Part shown: positions 7,886 through 19,320 of the stretch, in pieces | Numbering within the stretch: position 1 is the stretch's first letter | How the letters are laid out: each line of letters begins with the position of its first letter | The notes under the pieces: generated by a model | Seen by the model: only the letters and a program-made list of their open reading frames with translations | What the model was told of the DNA's origin: nothing | The model's database searches: none | Virus record (IMG/VR): IMGVR_UViG_3300032240_000604 | Coordinates: 1 to 26,589 of that record | From: a virus | Taxonomy: Duplodnaviria > Caudoviricetes | Length of the DNA: 26,589 bases | Direction: 5' to 3' (one strand) | Position numbers and translations under genes: made by a program

Positions 7886-10870
7886 ATGGACACACTCAGC
7901 TTCCTACGGGCGATCTTGCCGGAAGATGGGTATAAGTACGTTGGTCTAAGTCGCGCTGGAACCCCCGGCATTGCCCACAAAGCATATGACTCATTGGAGA
8001 CGATGGCACAAGCCATTGCTTCATACGATAATCAAACTAACTTAACTGTCTACCACGCATGCGCTGCATATAAAGAACCCTACTTTGAGGTTGAAGTTGA
8101 TGGAGCACTCAAGAAAAAATACCGAGGCCAACAAAACTGGTACAAGGCCAAATCTTTTTGGGCAGACATCGACTGCGGAGAAACCAAAGCGCAAGAAGGA
8201 AAGGGTTACGCGACTAAGAAGGATGCGGCTACAGCGATCATCTCGTTTTGCCGGAGTAACAGCTTACCTGATCCTATGCTTGTGGATAGTGGCGGAGGTA
8301 TCCATTGCTATTGGCCTCTTACCCAGCCCATTGGACCAAACAGTTGGCGTACTATCGCCGCTTCTTTTAAGGCTGCTTTGGCTGGCGCTGGTCTGTTGGT
8401 TGACCCTACTCGCACGGCTGACTTATCTTCAGTCCTTAGACCAGTTGGATCACATAACCGCAAACCCGGGCGGGACGTACGACAAGTAAAGGTAGTGCGC
8501 GATGGTTCACCTATCACGCCGCAAGAATTCCATACTGCAATCAAAGCTGCAGTTGCCAAGTACAACGTAATACCTGCACGTATTACACAAGCGGCTAACT
8601 TAAATGATGACTTAACGGCTCACCTTGGGCCTCAACTAGAGTCCTCTGCTGACGAAGCGGCTAACCACTGCAGTCAAATGCGCGTAATGCGCGACACACA
8701 AGGAGACGTCGACTATGAAACGTGGCGCGGTGTTATTGGGATTATCAAACATTGTGTTGAAGGTTACGACCTTGCTGAACAGTGGAGTGCAAATCGTGCG
8801 GCTACTGGGCACAGCAACACAGATACTAAAACACGCTTTGATACTTGGAGCGCTGGCCCTGCTACTTGTGAATATTTTCAAGGCTGTAACCCGACAGCCT
8901 GCGATGGATGCACCCATAAGGGAAATATCAAGTCACCAATCGTGTTGGGACGACTACTGCCTGAACCCGCTGAAACCACAGTAGAAGTTGTCAATGAAGC
9001 CAAGCCTGATGAAGTCTTGGAAGCCACTGTGCCTCCAATGCCTGAGGGGTATGAGTACAAATCAGAGCGCATGCTTCGGTTTATTAAAGATAAAGATGGC
9101 GTATTACAGCCCTATACGTTTTGCCATACATTGTTCTATCCAATTCAACGGATCAAGAAATCTGATGGGTCATTTGCGTTCACTATCCGTATGCACTTAC
9201 CTGACCAACGGGTACGAGATTTTGAAGTAGACACTGCGGCACTAGCTTCACCGGGCGATATGCTTAAAGCACTGTCCAAGTATGAACTTATGCCCTCTAA
9301 CAATAAGGATTCAACGATGCACATGACCGCGTACATACGCGACTCTATCCGTAAACTAATGGCTGAACAGCGTGAGACTGATACCCTGACTGCGTTTGGC
9401 TGGCGCGACAACATGAGTGGAGTATTGCTTGGAGACAGGCTATATCATCAAGATGGTTCTATCCGCAAGGTCTTTATTGGTGGCGCTGCTGCTGATCATC
9501 GCAACGCCTATCCTGAGCCTAGGGGTAGTCTTGCTGCTTATAGTCAAGCCGTCAACTACATATACAACCGCGAAAACAGCCAAGCCGCCCAGTACGTGTT
9601 CTGCAATGTGTACGGCTCCCTCATCACGCCATTCGGAGAAGACAGTTACAACGGCGCGTTAGTGGCTGTTAACTCAGGTGCATCTGGTAAGGGTAAAACT
9701 TCTGTGTGGCGCGCTGCGCTATACGGTATCTGTGATGCTAACAAGATGATCTTTGCTGGCAAAGAAGGTGCGACCCGTAACGCTCGTTGGGCTATCGTGG
9801 GTGCCCACAAGAACATACCAGTTGTGTTTGATGAGATGACGGACATGGACCCAGCCGAAGTAAGTTCAATGGCTTACACCACGTCACAAGGCACAGACCG
9901 AGCACGCCTTACATCATCAGGTGGCAAGGTAGGTTTTGCTGAGCAACACACGTGGAAGACTGTGGTTGGTTTAACTGCTAACGAAGACATGCACGCCAAG
10001 CTCGCATCACACAACGCCAATACACAGGCAGAAGCTGTGAGGATGATCGGGATCAACTTTGCGTCTTATAACGTGCCAATCATTGACCCCGCAGTGGAAG
10101 TATCCAATGCTATCGACACGATGCGCGAGAACATGGGCAATGCTGGGCATGAGTTTGTTAAGTACATTGTTACCCACCAACCGCAAGTTGCTGATCTATA
10201 CGCCAAGATAGAGAACAAGATGAGCCGCTTGATGCCGCAGTCTGAATATCGTTTCTTCCGTAGTCATGCAACTTGTACTTTGGTAGCGGCACGTATCTTG
10301 AATGACCTAAGCATCGTGGATTTTGACTACAACTTGCTAGAAGACTTTACTGTGCGTCTGATGACTGACCTAACTGCCGCAGTATCTAAGGGCAACATGA
10401 CTGACCCTGCAGAAGCCATCAATAGAATGGTGCGTGAGTTGTCTGGCCGTATCATAGTTACTGTTGGCTATCGTGACGTACGCACTGATGCTCGTGGCCC
10501 TGAAGAGTCTTTATCCCGCATCATGGGCGTGGCGGCTGGACGACGCATACTAGGCTCTCCCAACAAGAACAAAGGCGAGACGCTTGATCCCAAAATGGTT
10601 GGTAAATTATTTATCGCCAAGAAGGAGTTTATCGACTGGTGTTCCAAGAACCGTATGGAGCCAAAGGAAGTTATTAACTTTGCCAAAGAGCAGAAGTGGC
10701 TTGTCAAGGCACCGGATCGGTTCAACATTGGGCGGGGCACTGCGCACTCAACTGGCGCATGCGCTTGTTATTGTTTTGACTTTGCCGCTATGGAAGGCAC
10801 AGCAGAAAAAACTAGTGGCCCAGCTATTGTAAATATGGAAGAAGCTGCGGTATCATCCGTTGGCCAGTGA
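7886..10870 (+). CDS. primase-helicase (RepB/AEP-like primase, PriCT-2, DUF927, SF3 helicase)
   Basis: WADID and VDSGGGIHCYW primase motifs; DYETWRGVI (PriCT-2-like); Cys cluster CEYFQGCNPTACDGC; FGW; Walker A SGASGKGKT; Walker B VVFDE. Confidence 0.85.
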   Translation: MDTLSFLRAILPEDGYKYVGLSRAGTPGIAHKAYDSLETMAQAIASYDNQTNLTVYHACAAYKEPYFEVEVDGALKKKYRGQQNWYKAKSFWADIDCGETKAQEGKGYATKKDAATAIISFCRSNSLPDPMLVDSGGGIHCYWPLTQPIGPNSWRTIAASFKAALAGAGLLVDPTRTADLSSVLRPVGSHNRKPGRDVRQVKVVRDGSPITPQEFHTAIKAAVAKYNVIPARITQAANLNDDLTAHLGPQLESSADEAANHCSQMRVMRDTQGDVDYETWRGVIGIIKHCVEGYDLAEQWSANRAATGHSNTDTKTRFDTWSAGPATCEYFQGCNPTACDGCTHKGNIKSPIVLGRLLPEPAETTVEVVNEAKPDEVLEATVPPMPEGYEYKSERMLRFIKDKDGVLQPYTFCHTLFYPIQRIKKSDGSFAFTIRMHLPDQRVRDFEVDTAALASPGDMLKALSKYELMPSNNKDSTMHMTAYIRDSIRKLMAEQRETDTLTAFGWRDNMSGVLLGDRLYHQDGSIRKVFIGGAAADHRNAYPEPRGSLAAYSQAVNYIYNRENSQAAQYVFCNVYGSLITPFGEDSYNGALVAVNSGASGKGKTSVWRAALYGICDANKMIFAGKEGATRNARWAIVGAHKNIPVVFDEMTDMDPAEVSSMAYTTSQGTDRARLTSSGGKVGFAEQHTWKTVVGLTANEDMHAKLASHNANTQAEAVRMIGINFASYNVPIIDPAVEVSNAIDTMRENMGNAGHEFVKYIVTHQPQVADLYAKIENKMSRLMPQSEYRFFRSHATCTLVAARILNDLSIVDFDYNLLEDFTVRLMTDLTAAVSKGNMTDPAEAINRMVRELSGRIIVTVGYRDVRTDARGPEESLSRIMGVAAGRRILGSPNKNKGETLDPKMVGKLFIAKKEFIDWCSKNRMEPKEVINFAKEQKWLVKAPDRFNIGRGTAHSTGACACYCFDFAAMEGTAEKTSGPAIVNMEEAAVSSVGQ

Positions 10871-10904
10871 AGCCAACACTGGTCTTTTCTCTAGATGAGG
10901 GTTA

Positions 10905-10936
10905 CCCCCCGACGTAAAAATCGGGGGGCTTTTTAT
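10905..10936. terminator. terminator between the convergent early and late blocks
   Basis: CCCCCCGA-cgtaaaaa-TCGGGGGG 8-bp stem followed by CTTTTT on the + strand. Confidence 0.8.
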
Positions 10937-11182: not shown

Positions 11183-11428
11183 TCAGCACTTCCATGCCCG
11201 TAGGCTTTTGTTAATCCTAGAGTTCGGGTCTTTCGCTGTTTTTTCGGACGTCAACTTCTTCTTCATCCCTTCCATGCGAGCACAGAATGAGTCTTTTCTT
11301 GATCCGCCTTCTGGTTGCGGCGGTTTCAAGTTGTGCCCTTCTTTCTTGGCAGATGCTCGCCCCTTGGCGTTCAAGCCGCCGTTGGGGTTCTGGCCTTCCT
11401 TGCGTTGCCATGCTGGTGATTTAGCCAT
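11183..11428 (-). CDS. small basic phage protein (DUF6321-like)
   Basis: MAKSPAWQRKEG...GGLNAKGRAS...SFCARM...SRINKSLRAWKC. The family name is from recall. ATG 11428 is preferred. Confidence 0.75.
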   Translation of the reverse strand: MAKSPAWQRKEGQNPNGGLNAKGRASAKKEGHNLKPPQPEGGSRKDSFCARMEGMKKKLTSEKTAKDPNSRINKSLRAWKC

Positions 11429-11730: not shown

Positions 11731-14700
11731 CTAAATAATATTTGCAACAAATTGTTTGTTGGACTTTGAAGTTTCTACTCCATTGACCACAGAACGCTGG
11801 CGCTTACCTGCCGCCGAGACAGCCATAAACAGTTCAGACATTGGCTGAATTTTATACCCATTCTTGCGACGAGATGCTTGTAAGTCTTCCCAATCTTTAC
11901 GGGCATCAGCCATAGCACCTGAATCTCCGTCGCGGCTTGCGTCTACATACGCACCTTTAATCTCTGTCGCTTTGTCGGCATAGAACTTATCAAACTCAGC
12001 CTTAACATTCTGAGTATATTGGCGGTTTGTAATAGCCGTCGTGGGTAACCCAACAGCTTGGAACGCAGCGTCCACTATGCTGATATCTTCGGGTTTCATA
12101 ACCACATCACCGTTACGCATAGTAATACCTTCGTTTGCGTAGCGCACGCCCTTCATCGCATTGCCGATACCGTTGGGCATTAACAACTCCAGACCTTTGT
12201 AGTATTCACCCTTGCCAATCATGCCAGCGCCATCAATGAACTTGGGGGCTAAACCACCAAAGAATGGGCCCATCATTCCAACCATAACTTTTTCGTAGCC
12301 TGAACGGCTACTCAAGTCAACGTCAGTAAATGGCAGAATAGATGCGACGTTACCCATACCGAGTTTGCCACTGAGGTTTACACCCATAGCTGCAGGTACG
12401 CCGTTCAATAGCAAGTCTGCAAGCGTTTTATCACCAATGGCTTGGCGCAATTTGTACTCAAGGTCATCCGGTTCATCTTCGTCGCCGAATAACTTAACCA
12501 ATAGGTTTCCTATTTGCATAACAAACGGAACCCCAAGAGCGCCACCCAATACTGCCATGTGCCCTGTAATGAAAGACAGTGCGCGACGAGCAACCATTTT
12601 CTCCTCAGCTGACGCACCTTTGAATGATGTGTGGATGAGCTTGGCCAGCATGGATAACTGGATAATTTGGAAGCGCTTGAACTGACCAACCACACGACCT
12701 ACGTCAGAAGACAACACACGTGGGGTATTAAATCCGTCGTAAGAACCATGCGAGTTAGAGACAACTTCAGCAGCAAACTTAGTAGCCGCCTCTGTATTGT
12801 TAGCGCCATAGCGTTGGAGGTAGCCACGGTAGGCTGCGATGGCAGCTGTTGCGCGGTTGATTGTCTCAATGCGGTTGTTCACACCTTGGAGTTTGCGCAC
12901 TACCTTACCTAGTGTGCCTTGCTCTCCGGCACGGGCTTTGGCATCTGAATCAATACTAATATCAATCTTGCCCATACCCACTAGGGTTTGGAGCATACCG
13001 CGTACATCCGCCGGAGCCTTGCTAAAGTCAACATGGTCAGTAACTCCAAGACCTTTTACTAATGCACCTATGTCACTGTAAGCAGCTTTGATCGCACGGG
13101 CAGAACGGAAGTACCCAAGTCGCCCAGCCATGTAGGGTAAAGACAACACCCCAGTTTGGAGAATCTGTTGTAGGTAGAACGCAGGGCTAGTGGACAAGAA
13201 CCACAAAGATGTTGCCTGAGTTAATGCACGACTCAACAATGCAGGCTGCTTGTAATCCATGCTGTTGGATTGACGTGTGTACAACTCGTTGTACAGAGGC
13301 ATAGCCTCTTTGTAGTTACGACGGGCTTCTTCCCGCATTTTCTCAAGCGACCCAGTGATTTCGTCGTTGTGCTCCATCGTGGACAAGAAGTGAGCATCAG
13401 CCCGGCCGCTAGTGGCCAAGTTACGCATCATGTTCTCATTAGCACCATAGACATACTTACGGGCAATCTCAGACTTACGCGCACTGTTCTCAGCCGCAGT
13501 CATCAAGTACAAGTCACCGAGCAATTTATCTAGTTCTTCAGAGCCTTCACCCTTTTGGCGGTTGGCAAGGTTACGTGCACGGGAAACAGCAAGGTGTAAG
13601 TCATCCCCAATATAGGAAGCTGCAGCTTCTTTTGGCCCGGCCTCGGTGCCGTCCATATCAAACTTACCAGTAGCAATTAGCTCAGACGCTAGCTGGTCAG
13701 CCTCTCCTTGGGTTTCAGCAAACTGTACAACATAGTGATCAGGACTAGATACGTGATCATCCAACCATGCTTTGGCACGCTTAACGTCGAAGTCATTTAA
13801 CTTAGCGCGCTCTTCCCAGTGCTTGAACTCTTTGGACTTGGCTACAACGATATAGTCCCCATAACGTCCAAGGTATGCGTAAGGCACAGTAAAGTCGATG
13901 TTCTGCAATCTAGTCAGTCTAGACACCATCTCTTTGCGTTCTTTTTGCAGTTGCTCTAGGGCATCTGCATCACCAATAGCAGCACGTTCACGCTCAGCAA
14001 ACTCACGCTCCACTGCTTTGGACACAGCATTCTTCTTTAACTCAAGCGCGGTATACCCGTGATCAAACACATCTTTGATTATTTGCTGGGCATCATCAGG
14101 GAACGCATCGAACCTTGCAGCTAAGTCTTGGTCAGCTTCAAACAGTTCAGTACCAACACGATCTTCGCCGGGGTAGTAGCCCCATTTGCGTTTCATGGTG
14201 GAGTCAAGAATGTACCTATTAACGCTGTCTGCGCCAGTGCCTTGCAAGTTCTTAGGCAGTTTGTCGAAGTTTTCCAAGATACGCTCGATGCGCATCTCAA
14301 ATTCAAGGCGTGTCTTCTGACGGGCATACTGGGCATCAAGATAGTCTTTAGCCGAGCGCATGTACTTGCCAGCCATGTTGACCACATCTTCAGTAATAGC
14401 TGCGCTAAGCAGACCATTTCGGGCCGCAGTAATAATATTTGTAACTACAGACTTGGCAGGTCTAGCTGCCGCTGGAGGTAAGTAGTTGTCTAGCCCTTCG
14501 GAGAAGGACGCGCTTCGACTGGCAAGGCGCTCTGTTTCTCTTCGTCTTTGAATAGGATTGATACGGGCTTGACCGCCCGCGCTGGTGTTACGATTTCTGA
14601 ACGCGAGGGTTCTTTGCGCAGAAGTTGCTGCTGTTTGGATTTGAAGCGATTTTGTAGACTGGACATGTTTAATTACCTCTGCCATGAATGCGGCTGTTTG

Positions 14701-17700
14701 GGGGGCTACCTTTTCAAGTTTAGCTCGTCCCTTTGGATTTACATAGACACTAAATAACTGGGCAAACAATTCACCTTCAACCACTACATGGTTATCTATC
14801 TCTTTAAACTTTGAAGTGTTAAATGGATACTCAAGGTAGTCATTCCATCCAGCGTTTGTGTTGTATAGGTTGTACATCTCACGGGCAACTACACCCACTG
14901 GAGTAATCTTACCGTCCTTAACCACAACACTCATCTCAGGTTGGCCAGAGTAAATACCGCCATGAGGTGCCATATCTACAGCATGACCGACCTCATGGGT
15001 AACAGTTTCTATTGCGTGATCTGACGATGTCAATTTGGCTTGGTTTAGTACAACTTTGTACCGACCGCCCTGAGATACGATTTCGCCGTTGATAGCATCT
15101 TCAGCAGGGTCATTGATGGTTTCCCAGTCAGACACATAATCCATTGCATGGCCAATCCCCATGTCTTCTAGTTGTTTATTGGCGGCTTCAACACCGTCAA
15201 AATCAGCAGCTAAATCTTCTACAGCATAGAAAGACTTTGACTTACTGGCTAAACGCTCTTCCTCTTTGGCCACAACAGAACGAGTCTCAGCTTTACCTGT
15301 AACACTACCTTCGGTTGTCTCAATCGTTTGAGTCATTGCAGGGAATAGCTGAGCAATACCTTCATTGTTCTCCGGCATAACAAACATCAATGAACCATTA
15401 AGTTCATTTTTAGCGGGGATAAGGGTATCCACCATATTTTTATTGCTGACGTTAATACAACCCCAACTAATGCGGTTATCTGTTGGCGTCGGAGTAGCTA
15501 ATCGTTCTGGTCGTTTTTCAGAAGCCTCGCCTGTATATACAGCGTGTATAGCAATAATGCCATCGACTTGTCGGGTTTCAGCAAGGTCGTACCGGAAACC
15601 GCCATAGTATTCTGGGTCAGCCGTAAACTTTAAAGTAAATTTTCCAGCGGGGGTAATCTTTTTACCGCCTTGTAACGTATCACCTACATCACCGCCCAAC
15701 AAAGACGGGGCTTGCAAAATAGGGTTTCCATCTGCATGGAATACATGTAGCTGAGCATTGACTTTGTCAACAATCATGAAAGCTTTGTTGGCTTGCTTAG
15801 CAATGGGTGCTACGGCGGAGTAAGTAACTTGTGCAGCCTCAGACATCTTGGCTTTAGCAACATCCGGCACCGCAGCCCTGACTTCAGTAGTTTGTGAAAC
15901 TACACGAGGTAAGTTGAACTGGAAATTTACTTTGGCTAACGTAGGGTTAACCACTATGGCAGCAGCTAGTACACCTTGAGCCACCACTCGAATAATGTCA
16001 CGAATAGCAGCAGAAACTGCTTCAGCACCTTTGCTGGCGTAAGCAACTACATCTTCGCCTAGTTTGCTAAAGAAATCATCAGTGCCACGCTTGGCACCAT
16101 AGTGTTGTTCTAATCGAGTAGCCTGACCTTCGGTAAGTTTTTCTACCTCAGGTGCTAGCGTCTTAGCATCTCCAGTAATGCTTGGTGTTTCAGTGGTCCC
16201 CGCTTTGACAGTAGTCGTAAGCACCCGATTGGCAGCCGCAAGATTAGCCACGCCACGAGACGCGACATCATCCCATCTAATTTTTTCATCTTTGGTTAGT
16301 CCTTCATATGGAGGCATACCGGGGAACTGATCAGCCAAAGCCATCCACTGTTCTTCAGGTGTTTTTACTTCTTGCTTGACTTCTTCGACTGGCTTGGCTT
16401 CGACTTTGACCCTACGTGCTCCGGCAAGCTTTTTGGGTTTGGCGTTAGCTTTGCCCACTTCTTCGCCACTTCCGGCTGGTTGGCGAACATTTCCCTCATC
16501 TGTGCTTTCGACTTGAACGGCATTTTCAGTTTCCTTTGGTGCTTGTTTACCAGCTGTTGCGCGGACGCGAGCTTTTTCTTTCTTCTCAGCGTCAGCAATT
16601 TTTGCAGTTAGTTCTGCTACTTGCTTTTCTAAATCTTCTACACGCCCGTCATTGGCTTCGTTGGCAGCCTCCAGCTCATTGGACAAGTCCAAGTATTGCT
16701 GCATCAAGGCTTCCATCTTATTGCCTTCTTCGGCCAAATCAGATACGTTGGTCCGGTCTATTTTTCCGGTACCCTTACCTTGGTTATCGACACGCTCTTT
16801 AACATTCTGGATTTCCATGCCAGTGTTGATAAGGTCGCCCTCATCTACTGTTGTACCCAGAGCCCCATTAGTTGCATTTTCTGCATAGGCTTCACGAATA
16901 GTCTCAAGCCCATCCAATGCTTCCAATAAACTGACGTTCATTGTTTCGGCTTGGTAGTTAACCGCTTCTAAAAACTTGTCGAGGTTCTTTGTAATAAAAC
17001 GAGGATGCGTTTCACCCTTGTCTGTAATAGCATCAGACGCTAGTTCTTTGACGTACTGTTCAGTTACGCCGTACTCTTTAGCCAGTTCACCATAGTTACC
17101 ACGATTACCCTCTTCGGTAAGATACAGTAGAAGTTCAACTTTGCGATCTGACTTATAGATCATCCGCAACGCATTGCGTATTAGATTGGGGACCTCTTGG
17201 ACCCGTTGCTCTTCGTCTGACTGAGCTTGTAACTCTGAAGGAATTGCCCCAGTATATTCATTAGCTTGTCGTTCTGTGGCGTTTTGGGCGGTACTTGAAA
17301 CAGCTGCTTGCTGTTGACCAGTGGTTCCTTGGGTGGTTGCATTTTGTGCTCCGCTTACTTGCGCGTTCTGCGTGGGCTGACCAACATCATTGGCAACGGC
17401 GCTGCCATTGGCTCCTGCCCGTACTCCTTCTGCTGATAACTGTCCAGTTTGGAGACCAAGCGATCCCTCTCCGAGACCTGCTGTTCCGATGGGTTGAACT
17501 TGAGCGGGTCGTACAGGCCCATTTCCTCCATTGCTTGTTTCTCTTGCTCCGCCTTGGACTGGTACTTTTCGAACCCCGGCGTTGTTTTGCAGTTGTAGTT
17601 TTCCATTTTTAGCTCCTTTAGCTACTTCGGATTGTTGGCTGGCTATATAGCCAGAAGTATCCTCACCCGTTAAGGCTTGGTGAATTGCGTTAATCTGCTC

Positions 17701-19320
17701 AAGTTCATTCTTCTTGGCAGTTTTAGATTGCTCATCAAGGATTGCTGCGGCTTCTTCCACCGATTGCACGTGCGCAATTTGAAATTTGTTAGCCGTTTTA
17801 GCTACCGCTTCAAAACCCTTTTGAACAGATGCTTGTGGATTATTAGCATTAAAAGTAAAGCTGACAAGTTTATTTCCTGTTTCAGAGTTGGCTTGAATAA
17901 TAGCTTTAGTAATGTCGCGCTGGTGTGGCTCCATCGCTTTGTCTAGAGGAACAACCGCATCAGCTACAGCATTAACACTTGGGCCAAAAAGTGGCTTACC
18001 TAAGAACTGCCCTTGCTTTGCTGCAGGATCAGTAGTAATACCAAAATCTTGCATGGCTTGTTCGCGGGCTGCTTGTTGTGCTTGTGCTTGCTGAATCTTT
18101 TGAGACTCAGCCTGTGCTTGTTGCTGAGCAACTGCAATATCTGTTGACCCACCAGTAACTGCCGGAGGTAATTCACCACCAATAAGTTTAGAGCGCCCAG
18201 CCAAGGGATCAGCACCACGGCCAGTTAGTCCAGCCATAATCCCAGCAGACGGCGCAGGCGGCAATGGCGCAGGTGGAGTGAACTGTTGTGTTGTTAATGG
18301 TGGTTTAGATTGGTCATCACTAGCAATAGCCTGAGACACATCGTTTCCAGAACGACGCCATCCGCCAAGGGCTCCGCCAGCAACACCGCCTAGCGTAGCG
18401 CCGCCAATGAAAGATTCTTTAAAACGTTCTTGGGCAGCATCACTAAAAAATTGCTCGTTTTTATCAACCGACATGCGGCCAATTTGATTAAGCATTTCTT
18501 GGCCAGTTTCAGACGCGCCTTCTTTTAAACCAACGCCAGTGGCAGTAGCTGCAGTACGAGCAGCAGCACCTTTGAGCCCAGTTCCTTTATCAAGAAGGTT
18601 GACTGAATTTTTAAATAAGTTACCGCGCATCAATGCGCTTTCCACACCAACTGCATTTAAGGCAGCGTATGGGACGGCTAGGGCTGCGGCTACGCCACCA
18701 CGAGTTTCGCCAGATTGTTCTCTTTGGTTACTTAGTACATCACCAACAGCCGATGGATACGAAGCAGCAACACCGCCAACCTCAGAACCAATATTAAGAG
18801 CGCGTTTGGCTTTGGCAACAGCCGCAGTATCACCAGCAAGTTCCGCAGCAGAAAGGGCTGCACGAGTTCCCGTCATAGCACCACGGGCGGCAAGTCCGCC
18901 AACTAAAGCTTCTGCGGCATAAGGTACAGATTGAATAGCCAGATTCTTGGCGTAACTACCAAAGTCACCAACCCCGTGGACATTCTTCCACTCATCGACA
19001 GCACCAAGCTCACGAGCGCGTTCCGCAGCAATATCTGCCTGCAGTTCGTTTTCTTGTCTATTACCCCGTAGGTATTTACTGACACCAGTAAGGCCAACAC
19101 CCTTGGCTACTTCCTCTCCTACACCGTAAAGTCCTGCTTGGTAGCGGTCAATAGACGACGAGAATTGTTGTGAAGTCAGTCCGCCCTTTGGGACCTTATA
19201 CCCAACCTCAGACGAAATTTCTGCTGGGTCAATTCCAAAGTCTTTGGAGGCTCTGCGAATTAAATCAGCGTCTGACTCTGCATCTGGAAATAACGCACGT
19301 AGTTGATCTAGTGTGGCCAT
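11731..19320 (-). CDS. giant internal virion/ejection polyvalent protein (HTH-like, L,D-transpeptidase-like, zincin, PLxRFG-like regions)
   Basis: 2529-aa ORF, third in the internal-virion cluster. Motifs: AIHAV...SWGCINV; THEVGH...ELFA; YAYLGRYGDY; Gly/Ala-rich hydrophobic N- and C-terminal segments. Confidence 0.85.
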   Translation of the reverse strand: MATLDQLRALFPDAESDADLIRRASKDFGIDPAEISSEVGYKVPKGGLTSQQFSSSIDRYQAGLYGVGEEVAKGVGLTGVSKYLRGNRQENELQADIAAERARELGAVDEWKNVHGVGDFGSYAKNLAIQSVPYAAEALVGGLAARGAMTGTRAALSAAELAGDTAAVAKAKRALNIGSEVGGVAASYPSAVGDVLSNQREQSGETRGGVAAALAVPYAALNAVGVESALMRGNLFKNSVNLLDKGTGLKGAAARTAATATGVGLKEGASETGQEMLNQIGRMSVDKNEQFFSDAAQERFKESFIGGATLGGVAGGALGGWRRSGNDVSQAIASDDQSKPPLTTQQFTPPAPLPPAPSAGIMAGLTGRGADPLAGRSKLIGGELPPAVTGGSTDIAVAQQQAQAESQKIQQAQAQQAAREQAMQDFGITTDPAAKQGQFLGKPLFGPSVNAVADAVVPLDKAMEPHQRDITKAIIQANSETGNKLVSFTFNANNPQASVQKGFEAVAKTANKFQIAHVQSVEEAAAILDEQSKTAKKNELEQINAIHQALTGEDTSGYIASQQSEVAKGAKNGKLQLQNNAGVRKVPVQGGARETSNGGNGPVRPAQVQPIGTAGLGEGSLGLQTGQLSAEGVRAGANGSAVANDVGQPTQNAQVSGAQNATTQGTTGQQQAAVSSTAQNATERQANEYTGAIPSELQAQSDEEQRVQEVPNLIRNALRMIYKSDRKVELLLYLTEEGNRGNYGELAKEYGVTEQYVKELASDAITDKGETHPRFITKNLDKFLEAVNYQAETMNVSLLEALDGLETIREAYAENATNGALGTTVDEGDLINTGMEIQNVKERVDNQGKGTGKIDRTNVSDLAEEGNKMEALMQQYLDLSNELEAANEANDGRVEDLEKQVAELTAKIADAEKKEKARVRATAGKQAPKETENAVQVESTDEGNVRQPAGSGEEVGKANAKPKKLAGARRVKVEAKPVEEVKQEVKTPEEQWMALADQFPGMPPYEGLTKDEKIRWDDVASRGVANLAAANRVLTTTVKAGTTETPSITGDAKTLAPEVEKLTEGQATRLEQHYGAKRGTDDFFSKLGEDVVAYASKGAEAVSAAIRDIIRVVAQGVLAAAIVVNPTLAKVNFQFNLPRVVSQTTEVRAAVPDVAKAKMSEAAQVTYSAVAPIAKQANKAFMIVDKVNAQLHVFHADGNPILQAPSLLGGDVGDTLQGGKKITPAGKFTLKFTADPEYYGGFRYDLAETRQVDGIIAIHAVYTGEASEKRPERLATPTPTDNRISWGCINVSNKNMVDTLIPAKNELNGSLMFVMPENNEGIAQLFPAMTQTIETTEGSVTGKAETRSVVAKEEERLASKSKSFYAVEDLAADFDGVEAANKQLEDMGIGHAMDYVSDWETINDPAEDAINGEIVSQGGRYKVVLNQAKLTSSDHAIETVTHEVGHAVDMAPHGGIYSGQPEMSVVVKDGKITPVGVVAREMYNLYNTNAGWNDYLEYPFNTSKFKEIDNHVVVEGELFAQLFSVYVNPKGRAKLEKVAPQTAAFMAEVIKHVQSTKSLQIQTAATSAQRTLAFRNRNTSAGGQARINPIQRRRETERLASRSASFSEGLDNYLPPAAARPAKSVVTNIITAARNGLLSAAITEDVVNMAGKYMRSAKDYLDAQYARQKTRLEFEMRIERILENFDKLPKNLQGTGADSVNRYILDSTMKRKWGYYPGEDRVGTELFEADQDLAARFDAFPDDAQQIIKDVFDHGYTALELKKNAVSKAVEREFAERERAAIGDADALEQLQKERKEMVSRLTRLQNIDFTVPYAYLGRYGDYIVVAKSKEFKHWEERAKLNDFDVKRAKAWLDDHVSSPDHYVVQFAETQGEADQLASELIATGKFDMDGTEAGPKEAAASYIGDDLHLAVSRARNLANRQKGEGSEELDKLLGDLYLMTAAENSARKSEIARKYVYGANENMMRNLATSGRADAHFLSTMEHNDEITGSLEKMREEARRNYKEAMPLYNELYTRQSNSMDYKQPALLSRALTQATSLWFLSTSPAFYLQQILQTGVLSLPYMAGRLGYFRSARAIKAAYSDIGALVKGLGVTDHVDFSKAPADVRGMLQTLVGMGKIDISIDSDAKARAGEQGTLGKVVRKLQGVNNRIETINRATAAIAAYRGYLQRYGANNTEAATKFAAEVVSNSHGSYDGFNTPRVLSSDVGRVVGQFKRFQIIQLSMLAKLIHTSFKGASAEEKMVARRALSFITGHMAVLGGALGVPFVMQIGNLLVKLFGDEDEPDDLEYKLRQAIGDKTLADLLLNGVPAAMGVNLSGKLGMGNVASILPFTDVDLSSRSGYEKVMVGMMGPFFGGLAPKFIDGAGMIGKGEYYKGLELLMPNGIGNAMKGVRYANEGITMRNGDVVMKPEDISIVDAAFQAVGLPTTAITNRQYTQNVKAEFDKFYADKATEIKGAYVDASRDGDSGAMADARKDWEDLQASRRKNGYKIQPMSELFMAVSAAGKRQRSVVNGVETSKSNKQFVANII
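14490..14666 (-). CDS. nested +1-frame ORF D (58 aa)
   Basis: GAGGT-8 nt-ATG; MSSLQNRFKSKQQQLLRKEPSR...RPSPKG*. Confidence 0.4.
   Translation of the reverse strand: MSSLQNRFKSKQQQLLRKEPSRSEIVTPARAVKPVSILFKDEEKQSALPVEARPSPKG
16365..16523 (-). CDS. nested +1-frame ORF C (52 aa, MPFKS-type small basic phage protein)
   Basis: AAGGA-8 nt-ATG; MPFKSKAQMREMFANQPEVAKKWAKLTPNPKSLPEHV... Confidence 0.65.
   Translation of the reverse strand: MPFKSKAQMREMFANQPEVAKKWAKLTPNPKSLPEHVGSKSKPSQSKKSSKK
17181..17342 (-). CDS. nested +1-frame ORF B (53 aa)
   Basis: GGAG-6 nt-ATG, 12 nt after the stop of ORF A; MQPPKEPLVNSKQLF...SPI*. Confidence 0.45.
   Translation of the reverse strand: MQPPKEPLVNSKQLFQVPPKTPQNDKLMNILGQFLQSYKLSQTKSNGSKRSPI
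17355..17606 (-). CDS. nested +1-frame ORF A (83 aa)
   Basis: AAGGAG-6 nt-ATG; MENYNCKTTPGFEKYQSKAEQEKQAMEEMGLYDPLKF... Confidence 0.55.
   Translation of the reverse strand: MENYNCKTTPGFEKYQSKAEQEKQAMEEMGLYDPLKFNPSEQQVSERDRLVSKLDSYQQKEYGQEPMAAPLPMMLVSPRRTRK

Follow-up and report, generated by a model that had tools for sequence, protein, structure and literature searches.

The locus examined here raises the question of whether one giant phage gene also encodes a set of small proteins in a second reading frame. It lies in IMG/VR record IMGVR_UViG_3300032240_000604, a 26.6-kb phage sequence with an estimated completeness of 46%, and the whole stretch of 26,589 nucleotides (nt) is referred to as the window. 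Within a 2529-amino-acid (aa) open reading frame (ORF) at 19320–11731 lie four shorter ORFs, termed A, B, C, and D, on the same strand and all in its +1 frame, each led by a Shine-Dalgarno (SD) motif. An original prediction, made from the DNA letters alone, had listed these four ORFs, placed each of them in a low-complexity linker of the giant protein, and proposed that the linkers are dual-coding; the coordinates, lengths, motifs, and spacings that it gave match ours exactly. Our results favor a model, to which we assign a probability of roughly 0.8 on comparative sequence evidence, in which A, C, D, and probably B would be independent small genes with their own ribosome-binding sites, and the giant frame over them a tolerated spacer.

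Conservation and selection in the nested frame

Relatives of the giant gene were found with the last 599 aa of its product, without use of A–D, which yielded 46 loci. Together with the window these make 47 hosts (27 clusters at 92%; 39 full-length), and profiles of A–D were run on all three forward frames of each. Two loci with a 701-codon open frame between two genes (L058 and L060) were excluded as giant hosts. The giant frame is uninterrupted for 2138–3120 codons in 38 of 38 full-length relatives. Of the 47 hosts, 39 have A, 43 have C, 10 have D proper, and four have B proper, and every match was in the +1 frame. The arrangement of SD and start first noticed in the window proved to be conserved among full-length hosts for both A (35/39) and C (37/39). 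Most hosts begin A with AAGGAG-6-ATG; SD and start are present at 60 of 63 A loci, and two others are cut by the contig start. For C, an SD with ATG or GTG precedes 42 of 43 homologs, the remaining one having ATG after GGGGA, and in one clade the start has switched to GTG, as starts do.

Substitutions over A and C follow the nested frame. Variability at positions 1/2/3 of nested codons was 0.37/0.27/0.45 for A and 0.32/0.27/0.44 for C; in the control, the C-terminus of the giant protein, it was 0.39/0.30/0.61, with third-position variability following the host frame. A sliding scan of the whole gene found this variability inverted only in the windows at aa 561–640 and 921–960, those over B and D having too few comparable rows. 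Nested peptides were more alike than host peptides over both A (identity 0.56 vs 0.40) and C (0.59 vs 0.42), and the order was the same when the host peptides were aligned. Among independent close pairs, nested-silent changes exceeded host-silent changes 4–5-fold (0.316 vs 0.065 per site in 14 pairs for A; 0.382 vs 0.090 in 15 pairs for C). Because the host-silent rate equals the rate of changes that alter both frames, host residues would add little constraint over A and C. Aromatic residues make up 0.2–0.4% of the host frame there, compared with 8.1% in the C-terminal domain. Of 3000 trials in which the nested frames were recoded, at most 0.13% kept the host frame open, and among 34 free-standing C genes the host-equivalent frame is open in only 10; since the giant frame nevertheless stays open, both frames are likely to be used. 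Taken together, these patterns clearly point to A and C as real nested genes kept by selection.

The single genome alone is only suggestive, and the comparative data decide. Across 3000 synonymous codon shuffles of the giant gene, the null suggested along with the original prediction, SD-ATG +1 ORFs of at least 50 aa numbered 1.04 on average vs the four present (P = 0.009, with thresholds set post hoc from the earlier finding), and the count was unremarkable once the SD filter was dropped (6 vs 4.1; P = 0.18). The nested ORFs might instead be mere shadows, if host linkers that are conserved and rich in K, E, G, and N happen to produce SD-like motifs, ATGs, and +1 frames free of stops. Host residues do partly force the SD motifs, A retaining an SD of at least four bases in 100% of the shuffles, and other SD-led +1 shadows occur in the gene: two ORFs of 43–44 aa (16289–16155 and from 11906), missing from the earlier list of four, were rejected as genes and behave as shadows. 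Over the first of these, host third positions are the most variable (aa 1001–1080), and +1 stops interrupt it in many relatives. However, the selection on the +1 frame already refutes a shadow origin for A and C, C is also a free-standing gene family, and the slot of D is filled far more often than expected (see below), which leaves chance shadows an extremely improbable explanation. Conservation and selection support the proposed dual coding for A and C, position supports it well for D, and support for B is moderate.

Programmed +1 frameshifting would instead make the +1 segments alternative C-terminal tails of shortened giant proteins. It would account for all four ORFs lying in +1; an internal SD can stimulate +1 shifting, as in prfB, and fusion of C to other sequence is tolerated, as seen where C forms the N-terminal part of longer proteins (9 of the best 80 viral loci). 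The start signals argue otherwise: SDs stand 5–9 nt ahead of a start codon, which is ATG or GTG; +1 stops lie five codons before the ATG of A and two before that of D; B often begins as TAAATG on the stop of A; and free-standing and nested C share the same initial Met. We therefore regard frameshifting as very improbable. The nested starts are also stronger than that of the giant gene, both in the window (SD energies of −5.6 to −7.9 vs −2.4 kcal/mol) and across relatives (medians of −7.9 for A and C, n = 22 and 21, vs −4.45 for the giant start, n = 24), so that they should produce an excess of the small proteins.

In two hosts that lack A or C, the corresponding linkers hold different SD-led +1 ORFs (L132, host aa 553–596 and 836–901; L103, host aa 421–487). 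More nested families probably exist.

Table 1. Positions of the giant gene, its domains, and the ORFs nested in it
Feature	Positions	Strand	Description
Giant polyvalent virion-module gene	11731..19320	-	2529 aa; host frame of the nested ORFs
SD of A	17613..17618	-	AAGGAG, 6 nt before ATG
Nested gene A	17355..17606	-	83 aa, +1, net charge 0, basic tail; lineage-restricted family
SD of B	17349..17352	-	GGAG, 6-nt spacing
Nested ORF B	17181..17342	-	53 aa, +1, basic; one of several families in the slot behind A
Helix-turn-helix-like host domain	16921..17178	-	aa 715–800, directly after B
SD of C	16532..16536	-	AAGGA, 8-nt spacing
Nested gene C	16365..16523	-	52 aa, isoelectric point 10.5; phrog_1375 member
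SD-led 44-aa +1 ORF	16155..16289	-	rejected; shadow of a conserved host domain
YkuD-like L,D-transpeptidase domain	15430..15777	-	Pfam PF03734, E = 1.5e-4, slightly short of cut-off
Zincin metallopeptidase (MPTase) domain	14662..15168	-	giant aa 1385–1553; intact HExxH and downstream Glu
SD of D	14675..14679	-	GAGGT, 8 nt; inside codons of the last peptidase helix
Nested gene D	14490..14666	-	58 aa, +1, basic; predicted peptidase partner

The C family and genes A and B

C belongs to a family that exists largely outside giant genes. Its residues 3–42 match residues 17–61 of the 70 in phrog_1375 (E = 4e-4), a small phage protein family with hundreds of C relatives and no known function, and at least 431 viral loci carry it. 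Context was classified for the best 80 of these 431 loci, of which 54 are free-standing, nine N-terminal in longer proteins, and 17 nested in +1 (two of them in a doubtful frame), and for 59 loci in genome assemblies (49 free-standing, one N-terminal, nine nested in +1); none of the loci in either set is nested in +2. Five giant hosts of C (L011, L037, L055, L135, and L136) have no BLASTP likeness to the giant protein of the window beyond the shadow of C. In a tree of 52 C proteins over 40 columns, the nested label needs six changes, two of them forced by strong branches, and none of 200 bootstrap trees needs only one; this weak, unrooted tree suggests that nesting was gained or lost more than once. 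De novo overprinted genes have been described as a younger nested frame with no homologs outside the overlap (PMC8227390), whereas C has many. Because its family is mostly free-standing and the overlying giant frame is under almost no constraint, we infer that C arose by capture or read-through of an older gene, which agrees with one of the two origins first proposed for the nested set, the reading-through of separate genes.

In a scan of 67 hand-picked neighbor ORFs out of 132, together with four giant hosts, free-standing C adjoined terminase, portal, capsid, and other small basic genes. The DUF6321 family also flanks free-standing C in other phages; in the window, a free-standing small basic protein of this family is encoded at 11428–11183 on the minus strand, two genes past the giant gene. 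At six loci (L018, L019, L023, L027, L033, and L074), C is the N-terminal domain of proteins of 192–507 aa, where it might resemble a targeting or packaging tag. An AlphaFold2 (AF2) model of C has helices at residues 6–15 and 17–26 and a Lys-rich basic tail (predicted local distance difference test, pLDDT, 79), and a search of the C sequence against the PDB returned only designed-repeat and chance matches. A candidate assignment to DUF3008 (PF11450) was rejected, as Pfam matched none of 56 C-family members and the sole lead was an Atlas match of 0.85. On family and context, the odds seem about even that C is a many-copy basic head protein, probably binding nucleic acid, that was taken into giant genes more than once.

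One nested C lies in a cultured phage, Flavobacterium phage Elemovirus elemoA (NC_055852.1), where it occupies L135:9001-9129 in the +1 frame of KNV10_gp21, a 3694-aa structural gene; a second such copy is at L136:9001-9132. The RefSeq annotation of elemoA does not include it, in keeping with the earlier claim that gene callers would miss all four ORFs, which is mostly right, although some relatives of A and C are called proteins. Because the phage is cultured, the nested coding can be tested at the bench. Both of these copies and several other Flavobacteriaceae-linked ones (L278 and L281) have A-rich leaders and no SD. Initiation without an SD is known in Bacteroidetes and would fit these leaders.

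A, unlike C, was found only nested and without a family match: of 63 A loci, 62 are nested, one is cut by the contig end, and none is free-standing. A has 14 invariant residues among 28 sequences, but no Pfam match at cut-off, no PHROG match, no usable Atlas match, and no real match among GenBank phages; 12 representatives in a large library were not informative. Neither A nor any of B–D matches a nuclease family in Pfam or PHROGs. Given the absence of free-standing copies, A could be a de novo or orphan gene. It follows a host domain at aa 470–565, and all 34 hosts with this domain carry A, whereas none of the four full-length hosts without A has the domain; three full-length hosts carry A without a detectable domain.

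The slot behind A usually holds a basic ORF of 43–75 aa and is empty in about a fifth of loci. Its ORF starts on the stop of A or 4–5 codons further on behind its own SD, and an SD-led ORF fills the slot in 11 of 23 hosts vs 3.4 expected. Among six B sequences, nested identity exceeds host identity in both nested-guided (0.53 vs 0.37) and host-guided (0.47 vs 0.42) alignments. The B family is present in four of the five hosts (among 47) with the helix-turn-helix subtype of the window, and the fifth has a weak B match (E = 0.06); in relatives, Sigma70_r4-like matches at this position fall below cut-off. The slot is conserved but its contents change fast, and B itself is likely to be a real gene. 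That A and B are partners of their adjacent host domains is a weaker proposal and, in our view, unlikely, and adjacency alone could explain why the B family tracks the helix-turn-helix subtype.

Gene D and the neighboring zinc peptidase

D is tied to the zincin metallopeptidase (MPTase) domain that precedes it. Residues H58, E59, H62, and E133 of this peptidase are invariant in 33 sequences, and its profile matches ATLF and Pro-Pro endopeptidase structures over about 35–50 residues, which are distant relatives; the Pfam ATLF match is below cut-off. The SD and ATG of D sit in the last helix of the peptidase domain, so the earlier placement of all four ORFs in linkers fails for the start of D. 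Among the 47 hosts, all 15 with the HEx[GA]HxxD peptidase subtype have an SD-led ORF in the D slot, and none of the 32 others does. A second set was assembled with the peptidase domain alone, and 49 of its 57 loci were used (four near-duplicates, one truncated locus, and three weak 33-aa matches were left out). An SD-led +1 ORF starts between −9 and +12 codons from the peptidase end at 46 of these 49 loci, compared with none in +2. With nine further near-duplicates removed, 37 of 40 loci had such an ORF vs 5.4 expected, and the positional control gave 3.4% of 1342 windows; the A and C counts from this test presuppose that the gene is present and carry no weight here. The slot gene is retained down to 26% peptidase identity. 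By its position, D is well supported as a real nested gene.

A model of the peptidase with zinc and D scored 0.86, compared with 0.04 for the best of three controls, a mark reached by 116 of 157 solved pairs and two of 215 mismatched pairs, counts that are only a rough guide here. The runs agreed in at least 96% of contacts, with 126–136 contacts and a partner pLDDT of at least 74. In the model, a D helix (R7, F8, K11, and L15) docks on peptidase residues 66–76 and the last helix, and D residues 18–41 cross the catalytic H58, E59, and H62. The modeled interface includes all four residues that are invariant in the D family proper (R7, F8, S23, and P28). D is thus predicted to bind the active site of the peptidase, which fits the second origin first suggested for the nested set, as hidden partner proteins of neighboring domains.

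What D would do there is a separate matter. We lean slightly toward a role in which D keeps the neighboring peptidase inactive inside the cell that makes the phage, up to packaging or injection; alternatives are a substrate or a folding helper. The genes could be real without D being an inhibitor; it might be a substrate, or travel as a passenger with the peptidase cassette. Substrates, too, bind as a strand through the cleft, the nearest solved relatives of the peptidase include Pro-Pro endopeptidases, and D has a conserved Pro in its cleft segment, whereas the wide divergence of D-slot peptides would suit a passenger. However, the size of the modeled interface, its second docking site outside the cleft, and the persistence of the slot gene in divergent peptidases argue against both, and we consider them together unlikely, if clearly more plausible than shadows or frameshifting. 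As to origin, the simplest account is a cassette of peptidase and partner in which D lost separation from the peptidase as the stop between them was lost on fusion; a free-standing peptidase–D pair was not found among the 49 peptidase loci.

It is also conceivable that the nested ORFs serve in translation control, through ribosome loading, mRNA protection, or pacing, and that their products are irrelevant. The strong internal SDs beside a weak giant start would fit such a role, as would the tolerance of the B and D slots for unrelated-looking sequences, but purifying selection on A and C acts at the amino acid level and the predicted binding of D is specific, which makes this explanation improbable.

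Several observations weigh against our model or parts of it. Codon usage did not separate the frames in a test of which is older and was uninformative, and the loci are related, so the counts are not of independent events. The AF2 model of A is poor (pLDDT 66), and neither Foldseek nor VIA-align found a PDB fold match for that of C. D-slot peptides form several families that align loosely on a hydrophobic segment, sharing about 20% identity with Met as the only invariant residue; the codon-position signal of D is weaker than those of A and C, and its substitution test comprised only two close pairs and was uninformative. The complex score may pass through likeness to solved peptide-bound structures of ATLF and Pro-Pro endopeptidases, and the model cannot tell an inhibitor from a substrate. 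Finally, D, B, and A could be linked to neighboring domains simply because they lie side by side on a cassette that recombines.

Possible mechanism, known systems, and genomic setting

In the mechanism that we propose, ribosomes on one late mRNA would make the giant protein from its weak start, and internal starts of greater strength would yield the small proteins; where the giant frame passes over the nested genes, it would be a low-constraint spacer that need only stay open. D would place its N-terminal helix on a side pocket and run an extended strand through the catalytic cleft, and surplus D would hold the enzyme inactive while virions assemble, to be removed on packaging or injection. 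More tentatively, the +1 genes may form a hidden set in which each effector module is accompanied by a nested safety catch of its own, many "disordered linkers" being shadows of older small genes and the modules being shuffled as effector-plus-inhibitor cassettes. The linkage behind this idea is observed and modeled for the peptidase and D, and suggested for A and B.

Nested genes as such are known; what is new is family A, the occurrence of four such genes within a single gene, the strict D–peptidase linkage, and the active-site model. In phage lambda, Rz1 is embedded in the +1 frame of Rz, has its own start, and encodes a product that binds the product of its host gene, and a separated form is known. 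Rz and Rz1 are membrane lysis proteins with a single nested gene, and A–D have no likeness to them in sequence or context. A further possible case is TnpV (PF14198), which may be encoded in +1 relative to giant helicase-methylase genes on conjugative elements of Firmicutes and would then extend the pattern beyond phages.

Among published cases, the ShiLan HNH insertion in a phage methylase is likewise an out-of-frame gene with its own start in a tolerated in-frame loop, but it is a selfish homing endonuclease, whereas the four proteins here are small non-nucleases, one of them predicted to bind a host domain (PMC11855218). The nested microproteins of comS in srfA (Bacillus subtilis) and gndA in gnd (Escherichia coli) are also frameshifted, on the same strand, and functionally tied to their hosts, and GndA was proposed to have emerged in a tolerant region of an older gene; these are single cellular cases, whereas here the nested frame is constrained and, for C, apparently older (PMC11230408). 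The usual picture of overprinting is thus reversed, with a constrained small frame nested in a giant frame that is filler.

Phage polyvalent proteins include a zincin MPTase with an Asp three residues past HExxH, and these MPTases were proposed to process polyvalent proteins in the head or after injection (PMC5512222). The giant multidomain late product described here resembles them in having a zincin MPTase with the same Asp, and its relatives carry LPD23, ART-PolyVal, and ParB domains, swapped in along with the variable YkuD-like domain (15/47 hosts). Unlike here, the passages of that study that were covered name no nested genes or MPTase inhibitor, and its main text uses neither "overlap" nor "linker" (PMC5512222). 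In the portions of the open-access literature that were covered, we saw no account of genes nested within those for polyvalent or giant virion proteins. The MPTase is the commonest polyvalent-protein domain, and D offers a testable answer to how it may be kept quiet before injection. Our results also imply that aquatic phage annotation misses several conserved genes per giant gene.

The giant gene lies downstream of internal-virion and virion-structural genes identified by PHROG matches, and the C-terminal part of its product matches phrog_10089 (DarB-like; E = 3e-53) and giant proteins of cultured podoviruses. In its size, its several domains (MPTase or LPD among them), and its place among virion genes, it agrees with phage polyvalent proteins, and from its neighbors, context, and family matches we infer an ejection protein that is packaged in the head and injected. 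Capsid and portal genes fall outside this 46%-complete record. A scan for internal promoters gave eight sites vs 12.3 expected, with no sign of any. The replication genes occupy the plus strand and the virion block the minus strand, and between these converging blocks a GC-rich hairpin followed by a T run (10862–10928) is a likely terminator.

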